From: Eledone cirrhosa
Taxonomy: Eukaryota
Direction of reading: 5' to 3'
Assembly: GCA_964016885.1 (NCBI GenBank)
Contig: OZ024742.1
Location: 22,692,001 to 22,756,000, forward strand
DNA: 64,000 nt
The translations under genes were made by a program, and so were the position numbers. Within the stretch, counting starts at the first letter, position 1. Each line of letters opens with the position of its first letter. Shown in pieces: positions 10,412 to 61,250 of the stretch. The notes beneath the pieces were generated by a model. That model saw only the letters and a list, made by a program, of their open reading frames with translations. It did no database searches and was not told the origin of the DNA.

Positions 10412-10609
10412 GACAAAGAAAGTGTGGTAAGGAACCAGGTGGACCAAAACGCACCAGAGTATTCGATACTTAGGGTAGTAGAGTGGGTAATAGGAAAAGA
10501 GTCACGAGCTCGACAGCTAAGCTCCGGCCGTTTCGACAGCTAGATCCGAACGTTTAGATATAGCTGTCGAAACGGCCGGAGCTTAGCCGTCGGGGTCTGA
10601 ATCTGTTCC
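10412..10609. mobile_element. Short fold-back PLE pLTR remnant in (TA)n, related to the PLE-B 3' end
   Basis: Inverted arms around ~10545. Similar to 41530-41660 (gtggtaaggaacc...cttagggtagtagagtgggtaataggaa). Flanked by (TA)n. Confidence 0.8.
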
Positions 10610-10977
10610 TATATATATATATATATATATATATATATATATATATATACATATATATATATACATACATGGATAGAGAGAGAAAGAGACAGACAAACAG
10701 GCAGACAGATAGACATATATATATATATATATATATATTTTTTTTTTCAATTTCCAATTGAGTTCTTAGCACATGGCCTGAATTCCTTTCAGAGTTCATT
10801 GTCACGCGCATGTATTGTTTTTTTGGGCAGTAATTCACTTCCTCATATTTTGAATCAGTTCGAGCAGTTCTTTCAGAACTGCTGGACTGGCAACCTGACA
10901 GATACCTCAGGCACAGAAAGTGATTATCGCTAAATGCTGATGTTGGTTAGATTATCAATATTAGTATTATTGGGGCA

Positions 10978-11104
10978 CCCACTGATGAATTATAGGAGCC
11001 CACTTGAATATATATCTATTGATGGTATACAAGCTCCTACATAAATTGGAATAATTTCACCCAAATTGTAGGAATCCTATAATGAAACGAGACGTCCGTC
11101 TGGG
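10978..11104 (+). ncRNA. Type I hammerhead ribozyme with 95-nt branched stem II
   Basis: Stem I ccca/tggg; core CUGAUGA 10982-10988; stem II attatagga/tcctataat (9 bp); GAAAC at 11084; GUC at 11098-11100. Confidence 0.8.
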
Positions 11105-11645
11105 AAGAGATATATTCGATATGTCTCATTTGAAATAATACAGTCAATTTTCCACGTAATACTTTTAGTTAGCACCCCGAACTCTTAATTGGGAATATAC
11201 TCACTTATTTCCTAATGTTTGTTGAGTAGGTTGGAATTTGGCCGGAGTATCGCTAAAAAGCTTTCTCCGATATTGTATTTATATATATATATATATATAT
11301 ATATATATATATATATATATATATATATATATATATATATATATGTATATATATATATGTCTATATGTCTATCTGTCTGCCTGTCTGTCTGTCTCTTTCT
11401 CTCTCTATCCATGTATGTATGTATGTATGTATGTATGTATTCTATATGTATTGTGTTAAGTGGTCGCCCTTCGGTGCTATTAGTAACGTGTAAGCCAGTA
11501 CAATCTGTCACATAGCTTGGTGAGAAGGGCGATATTTGGACACCTTGCGGGATGAAATACAAGACCCGGCAAAGGGCGGAGGAACTCAGCAGAGTGAACG
11601 GCCATCCAAATAGTACTTTTTCTGTTCATATTTTTCTCTTCTTAC

Positions 11646-12610
11646 ATGGGAGTGAAAGACCCCCAGTTGTTGTCATGTATCTACCTACCTATCCTCTGTC
11701 AAGCGGGCACAGCAATCAGTGGAGACTCCACTTCGACATTCTATAGAGGGTTAGTACTTTACAAGTGCGATGACGTGCTCGGGGAGACTCTAGGCGTTGA
11801 AGACGACGAGCTCACCAGTCTGTTCAGTAGGACATTCCGCCCAGGACCTATGGACAACTTCCAGAGGTCCCTGGCCTGGCAGTGCTACCGAGGAGCTGTA
11901 CCGGTTCGTGACAAGATCTACAGGCACGGACGCCCCGGCAGGGATCCTTCCAAGAGGACGTGTCCAAGATGCGCGCTGGACATTGAAACCGTCATGCACG
12001 CAATTGTACACTTCCCGGGCGTAAGCCACCTGTGGAACTACGCAGAACAACTGTTGTCGCGTATGGGACAAATCCAGTTGACTGCCGAGTCCATAGTAAG
12101 GATCAAACCGCCAGCCTCTTTCAAAAACGAAAGAGAGGCGGTTTTCCTCTGTACAGTGGCTATGGTGAAAGAGGTTATATGGTGGACGAGATTGAGAGGA
12201 CCGAGGACAGATGCCTTTCTCTCCGGACAACAATTGATTCCCTTCTTTGAGAATCACTTTAGAAGGAGAATCAGAGTGGAGAGAGAGGCACTGTACCCCA
12301 GTAAATTTACTGAAAGGTGGGTGAATGTGGCAAAAATGGCCCGAGTGATTGGGCCTTCTCTGTTTATAAGCCTGTAGGTTAAAAAAGAGAGCAAAAGGAA
12401 GAAAGGAGCACTTGCACAACACGCTCCTGGAGTTGAGGGTTGTTCTATCGACGGGGTATTAAACAACCCATTTGTGGCGCCTCCCCCTTATTAGGGATTT
12501 TGATTGTTGTAATTGTTTGTTCTATATTTTGTACACGACTGTATGTAAAATCCCCGGCATGTGTCTTTGTATTGTCCCCTTTTCTTGTGCGCCCTTGGTG
12601 CAAATAAAGA
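11646..12610 (+). mobile_element. 3' fragment of an L1/Tx1-like LINE ORF2 (zf-RVT C-terminal region) with 3' UTR
   Basis: ORF 11646-12377 has the CPRC..ETVMHAIVH zinc-knuckle pattern followed by IWWTR. Ends at aaataaa before (TATC)n. Confidence 0.75.
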
Positions 12611-12644
12611 AATCTATCTCTCTATCAATCTATGTGTCTCTCTA

Positions 12645-12745
12645 CTTATCTATCTATCTATCTATCTATCTATCTATCTATCTATCTATCTATCTATCTA
12701 TCTATCTATCTATCTATCTATCTGTCTATCTATCTATCTATCTAT
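12645..12745. repeat. (TATC)n microsatellite
   Basis: Direct sequence. Confidence 0.95.
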
Positions 12746-59508: not shown

Positions 59509-60235
59509 AATATATATATATATGTATGTATACATTATATGCGTTTGTGAATATATATGTATATCTGTATATGTGTATGTGTGTGTGAATATATGTATGT
59601 GTGTATGTGTGTGAATACGTATATATATATATATATATACATATATATATATATATATATATATATATATATATATATATATATATATATATATATATGT
59701 ATATATATATCCTTAATCTCATAGATTTCACAAATTCATTTAAATCCTATGTTATCCCCTTTGTTTTAAAATACCTTAATATTTCCTCTCATTGATGAAA
59801 CACATTTCAATATTGAATAAAACCCACCTAAAGAAATATCTTGTCAAATAACTGTGCTGCTATCATATATTTGTATCTGCTCATCAATCCTAATTTAAAA
59901 CCATCATCGTCACAGTGTTATTTTCGGTTAAACAAGGAATTTTCTTCTGTATTGCCTCAGTTCACCTATTTGTAGAAATTATACATATATTAAATTATAT
60001 GCATAGATAAAATATAACTGAATAATACAGAGCCAGTTTTATGGAAAATTTAATATACATATGCATTCGTGAGTTTTATATCGGATAATCATATTATTCG
60101 ATTCATTTGCACGGAAACAACCTCATTACGCTATGTTTTTTTAGATGACCATCACCATTCGCTTGAATAAAATGATGACAATGGTCATCTAAAAAACATA
60201 GCATAATGAGGCTGATTGCTTGCAAACGAATCGAA

Positions 60236-60462
60236 GGGGGCGGTTTATTGGCAGTATCAGTAGAGAGTCGGACACCATGCTTTGACGCATAGAGTTACGG
60301 CCCTTTAGGTTCTGAGTTCAAATCCCGCCGATGTTAACTTTGACTTTCATCCTTACGGGGTCGATAAAATAAAGTACAAGTCATGTACTGAAGTCGATTT
60401 AATTGACTTTCTCCTTCCCCAAAATTGCAGGCCTTGTGCCAAAAGTAGAAACAATTATTATT
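60236..60462 (+). mobile_element. Full-length tRNA-derived SINE (octopus-like family)
   Basis: A box tggcagtatcag; B box gagttcaaatccc; ends agaaacaattattatt; several copies in the window. Confidence 0.85.
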
Positions 60463-60817
60463 CGATATAAAAGTTAAGAATGCATTTACGTATCCGCTAT
60501 GTTAGAGCAAAAAAAAAATCAAATTCTAATTTTGTTTTCAATATACATAGTACGTATTTCTCATTTCTAATATTATTTGTGAAGGCGTTTTGAAGAACGT
60601 GCAAGGAAAGGGAAACCAGAAGTCACAGCAGTGTGGAATCACAATATACGCAGAATTATTATATTCTATCTTGCTTTTGCACCAATACACCTATTTGTCG
60701 ATCTCCCCCTCTCCCCCTCTCCCTATCTCACTGTATATATATGTATATATATATATATATATATATATATATATATATATATATATATATATATATATAT
60801 ATATATATATATATATA

Positions 60818-60881
60818 TGGGAAAAAGTATGACTCCGACGGCAGAGCTCAAGCCGTTTCGACGACTATTTCTGGACTTAAG
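60818..60881 (-). mobile_element. Very short PLE-B-like 3' end in (TA)n
   Basis: ccgacggcagagctcaagccgtttcgac..tatttctgga matches 43500-43540. Confidence 0.8.
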
Positions 60882-60896
60882 TATATATATATATAT

Positions 60897-61250
60897 GACG
60901 AAGAAAAATATATATATGATTGAAAAACGAAGTTAATCCCTTGTAATTTAATGGGCTCAAGTGATAGAATCCGGGCTCTTTATAAGACAGTATATAGAGA
61001 AAAGTACACAAGGAGGTATGTGTTCCATTATAGGGGATAAAATACCACGAGAGGGAAAAACATATTGTCTACGAAAGGAATGGAGAATACATAACAATTA
61101 AAAGAATAAATTGAAATGCCCAAACCAACCTTTTATAACTATAACACCTGGACAAACTCATTTTAATTTATTACTTTGATATGTCTTCTCCATCCCTTTC
61201 GTAGACATTATGTTTTTCACTCTGGTGGTATGGTATCCTCTATTATGTTT
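60897..61250. mobile_element. Older, diverged fold-back element in (TA)n
   Basis: 61030-61074 is imperfectly inverted at 61178-61243. Confidence 0.6.

Follow-up and report, generated by a model that had tools for sequence, protein, structure and literature searches.

Long-plus-short fold-back insertions of Penelope-like elements at (TA)n arrays in a genomic window of Eledone cirrhosa

We analysed a window of 64,000 nt from Eledone cirrhosa (assembly GCA_964016885.1, contig OZ024742.1, positions 22,692,001-22,756,000, forward strand) for fold-back insertions of Penelope-like elements (PLEs), in which two inverted copies of an element 3' end point outward, mostly into (TA)n. The window is AT-rich and animal-like, and carries 93 TA arrays. 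We observed that every fold-back combined one long and one short arm, that the ends recurred at fixed positions within a family, and that in nearly all scored cases the short end shared TA letters with the target.

Anatomy of the fold-back insertions

Inverted pairs were identified by self-BLAST of the window after masking of simple repeats, followed by alignment of arm against arm; in the absence of masking, TA matches drowned the signal. All 12 pairs of the original prediction, labelled a to l in its order, were present where it had placed them, with an arm-to-arm identity of 0.89-0.99. The one-sided extension, expected to be roughly 40-150 nt, measured 45-150 nt and was found in each of the 12 (a 81, b 61, c 89, d 45, e 150, f 82, g 136, h 81, i 81, j 56, k 76 and l 64 nt). 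The inverted arms add up to 7,412 bp, or 11.6% of the window, and to this extent the proposal that PLEs are a large-scale source of palindromes holds within it.

To avoid selecting asymmetric cases alone, we performed a census seeded at the edges of the 93 TA arrays, leaving out low-complexity edges, and sought an inverted partner at most 7 kb away. This gave 18 matches, comprising the 12 known fold-backs, two extra ones (o at 60917-61250, and p, which starts at 16823), two matches internal to b and l, and two others (at 10664 and 52336), while 0 of 150 shuffled edges scored. A symmetric fold-back, whose partner arm also adjoins a TA array, occurred in none of the 18 census matches. The original prediction placed the ends nearly always in (TA)n; the long end of j lacks a clean TA array. 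The palindromes at 44660-44941, 60097-60235 and 45201-45236 were excluded from the fold-back count, since none of their arm ends adjoins a TA array.

The long-plus-short arrangement was seen in 14 of 14 fold-backs, and in all six whose tail, as we call the extension of the long arm, is proven to be element sequence (a, c, e, f, h and i); were each end a coin toss, six of six would have a probability of 0.016. The tails of a, f, h and i are mutually 88-94% alike, that of c recurs in a solo copy (43285-43372), and that of e recurs in its upstream pseudo-long terminal repeat (pLTR; 97%). No second full copy of the tail occurs within the window for b, d, g, j, k or l, and in o and p the tail is likewise unproven as element sequence. 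The insertions had been described as unrelated sequence, which was too strong, as a, f, h and i belong to one family (family F). Within this family the asymmetry was reproducible: the same ends occurred in all four window copies, and the short end recurred in all four sequencing runs described below. Because each has its own centre, a, h and i represent separate events.

We then asked where the short arm stops. An internal TA of the long arm had been proposed, and 3-6 alternating T/A letters were indeed common to the long arm and the target in 10 of the 11 cases scored (a, b, c, d, e, f, g, h, i and k). The overlap in j was 2 letters (3 allowing one substitution), and l, with its degenerate end, was left unscored. 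When each element's own positions were joined to (TA)n in either phase, the chance of a TA overlap was 0.04-0.18 per case; for the six unambiguous families (a, b, c, d, e and g), all of which showed an overlap of at least 3 letters, the product of the per-family chances is about 2 x 10^-6. A match at the long end could be checked in e alone, where ATA is shared with the upstream pLTR as reference.

Four public runs (coded X1, X4, X5 and X9, of which X4 and X5 come from one sample and X1 carries another organism label) were aligned to 41205-41662, the 3' end of family F. Statements on loose ends cover the best-supported ends listed, beyond which there are 651 further rows. Loose (AT)n began at 41582, directly after TAT, in 101 contigs of X4 and 113 of X5, and the same end was seen in 3855 of 23061 aligned raw reads of X9 and in 3 contigs of X1. 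The long end lay at 41649-41660 in X4, X5 and X9. X9 gives no ratio of short to long ends, because its read pile at 41529 sits on AATT, which we take to be the restriction cut of a RAD (restriction site-associated DNA) library. An internal TAT at 41624-41626 was absent among the read ends listed, suggesting that position matters as well as TA. Priming at TA microhomologies, as originally proposed, agrees with an overlap above chance, but TA alone does not appear to select the ends.

Among the 15 joints listed, 11 change strand, and 7 of these 11 were found in raw reads. One arm started at 41510-41535 in all 11, and in 5 the other arm started inside the tail. Taken together, the read ends and joints of family F indicate that the ends are family-wide and that fold-backs are present in DNA molecules. 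The concern that the palindromes are assembly artefacts can be set aside, given the joints in raw reads and arms that are 1-11% diverged.

The interval 41510-41535 is also where a, h, i and the stub at 60819 start, and summed depth rises about 30- to 300-fold there in X4, a figure that is not a copy number and to which subfamily divergence may add. It is a hot spot for both the start and the fold-back of family-F copies, on the 3' strand of a hairpin in the element, and could be the RNA 5' end or a stall site of the reverse transcriptase (RT). In a (10493-10609), the arms differ near the short end at a site that also varies from run to run in the read consensuses, which hints weakly at two templates.

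Element identity and features of the window

The features are collected in the table.

Table. Fold-backs, solo copies and nested element, in order along the window (a dot marks features given no strand).
Feature	Position	Strand	Description
a	10412..10609	.	Family-F fold-back; left arm long, with tail 10412-10492; spacer-free centre 10551/10552; short end at 10609; tail matches f, h, i
Solo family-F copy	14650..16162	-	Ends at short site; 5' end joined to (TA)n across 4 shared letters
p	16823..16877	.	Small extra fold-back; short end left in (TA)n; only the short end located
b	28887..29408	.	Perfect centre 29196/29197; short end left; tail 29348-29408; hammerhead core 29130-29106 (-)
c	29432..30556	.	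Left arm long, with tail 29433-29520 and continued by the spacer; short end at 30556
d	30618..31045	.	Near-perfect palindrome around a 1-nt centre at 30809; short end left; 45-nt tail; each arm with a hammerhead core
e	31081..35793	+	Hydra-type PLE; inverted 3' copy 31083-32139 (short end), pLTR 32138-32612, open reading frame (ORF) 32633-34855, pLTR and 148-150-nt tail to 35791
f	35868..41661	-	Hydra-type PLE, family F; short end 35868; ORF 39345-37171, frameshifted near 39027; right arm 41052-41579, tail to 41660
PLE nested in f	39345..41051	+	C-terminal GIY-YIG, zinc-finger-like motif upstream; inverted piece 39345-39708; hammerhead core 40854-40882; 3' end in internal (TA)n of f
g	42761..43194	.	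Short end left; tail 136 nt; 62-nt spacer apparently continues short arm (homologue 43633-43815)
Solo family-c copy	43221..43377	-	Long end; left-to-right orientation as right arm of c; tail towards 43377
h	43404..43597	.	Family-F fold-back around a 1-nt centre at 43541; left arm long; short end at 43597
i	51989..52153	.	Family-F fold-back; short arm left, 33 nt; spacer part of long arm; tail 81 nt
j	52929..53148	.	Presumed tail left; complete type-I hammerhead 53044-53119 (+), from spacer into short right arm
k	53396..53720	.	19-nt loop; polarity uncertain
l	57321..59508	.	Arms of 870 nt, each with a hammerhead-like fold; degenerate short end on the left; tail about 64 nt; spacer in long-arm direction
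Solo family-F stub	60819..60880	-	Ends at short site; (TA)n on both sides
o	60917..61250	.	Older fold-back beyond the original 12; short end right; about 105 nt between left arm and next TA array

The PLE origin assumed in the original prediction was supported by the ORFs of e and f, which carry PLE motifs, and by the membership of a, h and i as short copies in the family of f; most others hold hammerhead-like motifs. Both ORFs contain the RT motif YRDD and an xxYIG, with 40% mutual identity. The element e, with a frame of 740 amino acids, shows an inverted, 5'-truncated 3' copy, pLTR, ORF, pLTR and 3' tail, and a frameshift precedes its last endonuclease (EN) motifs; positions 32138-32603 repeat 35317-35784 with 96.8% identity, forming a partial tandem pLTR. 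The upstream end of f is replaced by the nested PLE. Neither ORF was matched in Pfam, where GIY-YIG was matched in the nested element only, and none of the 120 listed among 726 protein homologues of f was usefully named.

The Hydra clade is described as having RWK, a change of DKG to DKT, a CxCx5C linker, CxxC and CxH around the EN end, and a (TA)n target (PMC8557442). We found RWK and DKT in e, and RWR and DET, one residue off each, in f; linkers CNCHLPERC in e and CNCPDRSSC in f; CRLC with CNH (in the next frame) in e, and CNLC with CKH in f; and insertion into (TA)n. By these motifs and the target, e and f are provisionally assigned to the Hydra-type PLEs with a C-terminal EN. The hammerhead-like fold in e is a further likeness. 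Elements of this clade are usually <3 kb (PMC8557442); e is longer solely through its inverted copy, and the hammerhead core of f is degenerate.

Structured hammerhead-like folds were detected in e (3 copies), j and l (2), and weakly in c, against a background of 0.01 per kb at score 15. Matches to the core only were seen in b, d, the nested element and near 45471. No hammerhead passed in a, f, g, h, i or k, and Rfam returned none among 122 matches, with only hairpin-type matches below gathering scores. The predicted hammerhead cut coincides with neither the fold-back centres nor the short ends; by eye, the short ends of e, f, g, j and l lie about 20-65 nt past it. A search for conserved tail structure did not demonstrate one: covariation was seen in 1 of 27 pairs (4 sequences), and 6 of 8 tails fold at z above -2. 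Some hammerhead-like folds have unusually long stem II inserts (35489-35601, about 90 nt; 53052-53119, about 45 nt).

The nested PLE (39345-41051) lies in an internal (TA)n of the right arm of f. Its inverted piece abuts the start-codon region of f across a few shared letters, which could reflect a later deletion or a template switch between PLE families. The fold-back b is a single palindrome with a 159-nt gap in its long arm. The right arm of k, counted as short, together with (TA)5 and 53729-54060 (about 330 nt), matches 45229-45690; this match, about 75% alike, is more diverged than the k arms are from each other, and the long arm may therefore be the right one. Positions 45192-45690 and 53603-54060 thus form two approximately 75% copies of an arm, (TA)n and 330 nt with a hammerhead-like core, and the copy at 45192 opens with an 18-bp hairpin.

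Other repeats were also observed. A symmetric head-to-head palindrome of a short repeat resembling a short interspersed nuclear element (SINE) lies outside (TA)n at 44660-44941, each arm running about 12 nt beyond the end seen in another copy; further copies occur near 50460-51233 and 60249-60462, and the repeat may resemble an octopus SINE. An older, off-centre palindrome lies beside a SINE-like copy at 60097-60235, without a TA flank. The intervals 10651-10738 and 11276-11451 form a microsatellite-rich inverted pair with a 540-nt spacer, adjoining an ORF remnant like that of a long interspersed nuclear element (LINE) at 11598-12377, and at 52336-52667 a TA edge has a 23-bp inverted match to a LINE-like fragment. 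The window also holds a 71-bp satellite (1-8808), a TGG-rich array of about 10 kb (18400-28300, units of 61/180 bp) and a 14-bp tandem array (63570-64000).

How the two arms may arise

We consider it probable that both ends of a cut (TA)n array prime at two fixed sites on the element RNA, aided by TA pairing, and that the two cDNAs join head to head. Each fold-back would then be one PLE insertion into (TA)n, mostly of a 5'-truncated 3' end. The element nuclease would cut both strands of the self-complementary (TA)n, and each 3' end would prime reverse transcription, one at a fixed long site and the other at a fixed short site 45-150 nt upstream, with both sites 3' of the hammerhead. At whichever site is used, 3-6 TA letters of the cut target would pair with the RNA and so fix the exact end; the two cDNAs would halt, often at about the same place, and join via a short inverted match. 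Cutting and extension of both strands, the two start sites and the predicted dimer are carried over by analogy from the literature on another PLE clade. We infer that both arms are primed, that the TA overlap reflects priming and not end joining, and that either one RNA, with strand displacement, or two RNAs served as template. The twin-priming-like mechanism of the original prediction is upheld in so far as two primed ends, as opposed to snap-back, are the likeliest origin. In favour of this reading count the lack of symmetric census matches, the long-plus-short pairing, the TA overlap, the family-F read ends, the solo copies at the short site, the greater 5' reach of the short arm in j and probably g, and the 5 of 11 strand-changing joints with an arm that starts inside the tail.

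Snap-back, in which a long-site cDNA folds back on a short inverted match and serves as its own template, after which the other (TA)n end captures the new 3' end at a TA within the arm, would yield a long and a short arm automatically, and junction palindromes have been read as self-priming (PMC3846280). It would account for the centres of 0-1 nt in a, b, d and h, for the short arm being contained in the long arm, which includes the spacer, in c, e, i and l, and for 19 substitutions shared by the f arms relative to a solo copy. However, the short arm of j, where the hammerhead spans the spacer and the short arm, extends further 5' than the long arm, and that of g probably does likewise (its spacer scored 45 against the homologue at 43633-43815; 500 shuffles gave a mean of 25, sd of 4.8 and maximum of 51). 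Simple snap-back from a long cDNA cannot yield j, and probably not g, because the short arm reaches further 5'. Nor does it sit well with the use of the short site alone in the solo copies at 14650 and 60819, with a single sharp short site per family despite further TA sites in the tail, or with tail ends that match two RT start sites in vitro (PMC11167929). We therefore regard snap-back as rather unlikely, and priming at two sites as no more than probable, because the tails of j and g are unproven as element sequence. Besides these two tails, the short centres and the long arms that contain the spacer, several points weigh against two-site priming: the overlap in j is only 2-3 letters, and the score of the g spacer falls inside the upper tail of the shuffled distribution; the solo copies that end at the short site may have eroded from fold-backs; the read joints are silent on how the other arm ends; variants in a three-way comparison of arms left one and two templates indistinguishable; hammerhead-like motifs and layout, not ORFs, are the grounds for taking b, c, d, g, j, k and l as PLEs; and initiation was reported at RNA sites without homology to the cut DNA, in the Poseidon clade and at a non-microsatellite target (PMC11167929).

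The TA overlap would fit equally well if it marked a cut site and not a primer site, a symmetric long-long intermediate being trimmed by GIY-YIG at a TA in one arm during resolution. The tail has been suggested to result from EN-mediated resolution (PMC8557442), and the anole enzyme favours AT-rich sites (PMC11167929); however, an untrimmed symmetric case was seen in 0 of 14 fold-backs, the internal TAT at 41624-41626 is absent among the listed ends, and the tail has been mapped to two RT starts (PMC11167929), making trimming improbable. Still less credible, in our assessment, is an asymmetry of secondary origin, with tails that are host DNA between nearby TA arrays or were later lost when an internal TA and the array slipped against each other, or with palindromes that are assembly errors. 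The density of TA arrays and the tails that lack a second full copy in the window (b, d, g, j, k and l) would suit this explanation; k may be such a case, and b and f carry later deletions. The recurrent tails contradict it for a, c, e, f, h and i, the arm divergence and raw-read joints speak against assembly errors, and erosion would not strike exactly one arm every time. A miniature inverted-repeat transposable element (MITE), or other DNA transposon with terminal inverted repeats, was also considered and rejected, as a, f, h and i share outer ends but differ in centre, and their ends are asymmetric.

Under two-site priming, strict long-plus-short pairing requires either two RNAs bound by an asymmetric dimer or two rounds of copying from one RNA, with strand displacement. 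PLE RTs are not known to carry RNase H. We tentatively raise the possibility that one RNA is copied twice in fixed order, the short-site primer acting first, the long-site primer then displacing its product, and the freed cDNA annealing to the second. Since two primers cannot share one site, every fold-back would be long plus short. Both cDNAs would stop near the same point, giving near-perfect centres, and either arm may be longer; a stalled second primer would leave an arm consisting of the tail only.

Relation to known insertions and significance

In LINE-1 twin priming, both target strands prime and an inversion with junction microhomology results; the arms cover different parts of one RNA, and the second site varies. 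The fold-backs described here share the priming of both target strands under the favoured mechanism, but differ in that the arms overlap (12 of 12) and both sites are fixed. Read joints that start inside the tail may be non-overlapping cases.

Inverted pLTRs, with a tail optionally on one, and junction palindromes have been reported (PMC3846280), as have a 30-40-bp tail, often at one end, and a bias to (TA)n (PMC8557442). In vitro, the PLE PAc (Poseidon) of the green anole cuts and extends both target strands, its RT starts at two internal sites bounding the tail, and a dimer is predicted (PMC11167929). Prior work also includes PMC9977147, PMC13282606 and bioRxiv 10.64898/2026.07.22.740005. 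The original prediction correctly listed inverted pLTRs and tails as known but under-weighted this work, in which the one-sided tail, two RT start sites and extension of both strands were already published. The window shares with published insertions (PMC3846280, PMC8557442, PMC8969392) the head-to-head inverted pLTRs, one-sided tail, junction palindromes and, in e, a partial tandem pLTR. Published tails, however, measure 30-40 nt and are called 'optional' or 'often at one end', whereas those in the window are 45-150 nt, on exactly one arm in all 14 fold-backs, with a TA match at the short end. Under the favoured mechanism, the likeness to PAc lies in two internal starts 3' of the hammerhead that bound the tail, both strands cut and extended, and the predicted dimer; its starts lie in an AC-rich stem-loop without homology to the ATT target, unlike the ends in the window, which share TA letters with theirs (PMC11167929). 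The fold-backs in (TA)n are thus largely the known head-to-head footprint of PLEs, and our addition is mainly quantitative and makes the mechanism testable. We found no published account of strict long-plus-short pairing or of the TA match in the portions of the literature consulted, and no model for inverted arms in the text of PMC11167929, whose figures S1-S2 (end sequences) may show if the ends of PAc have letters in common with their targets or combine a long with a short one.

Such fold-backs could easily be misfiled as MITEs. Transcribed palindromic repeats are substrates for heavy A-to-I editing in other animals (PMC5625713). How the inverted arms and tails of PLEs form has been named an open question (PMC8557442). 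Should the long-plus-short pairing prove strict, and the ends indeed pair with their target, models of PLE integration would be constrained and a direct in vitro test would be available. Copying of one RNA twice, if true, would define a two-primer route of PLE integration with TA pairing between target and RNA, leaving a palindrome at each insertion.

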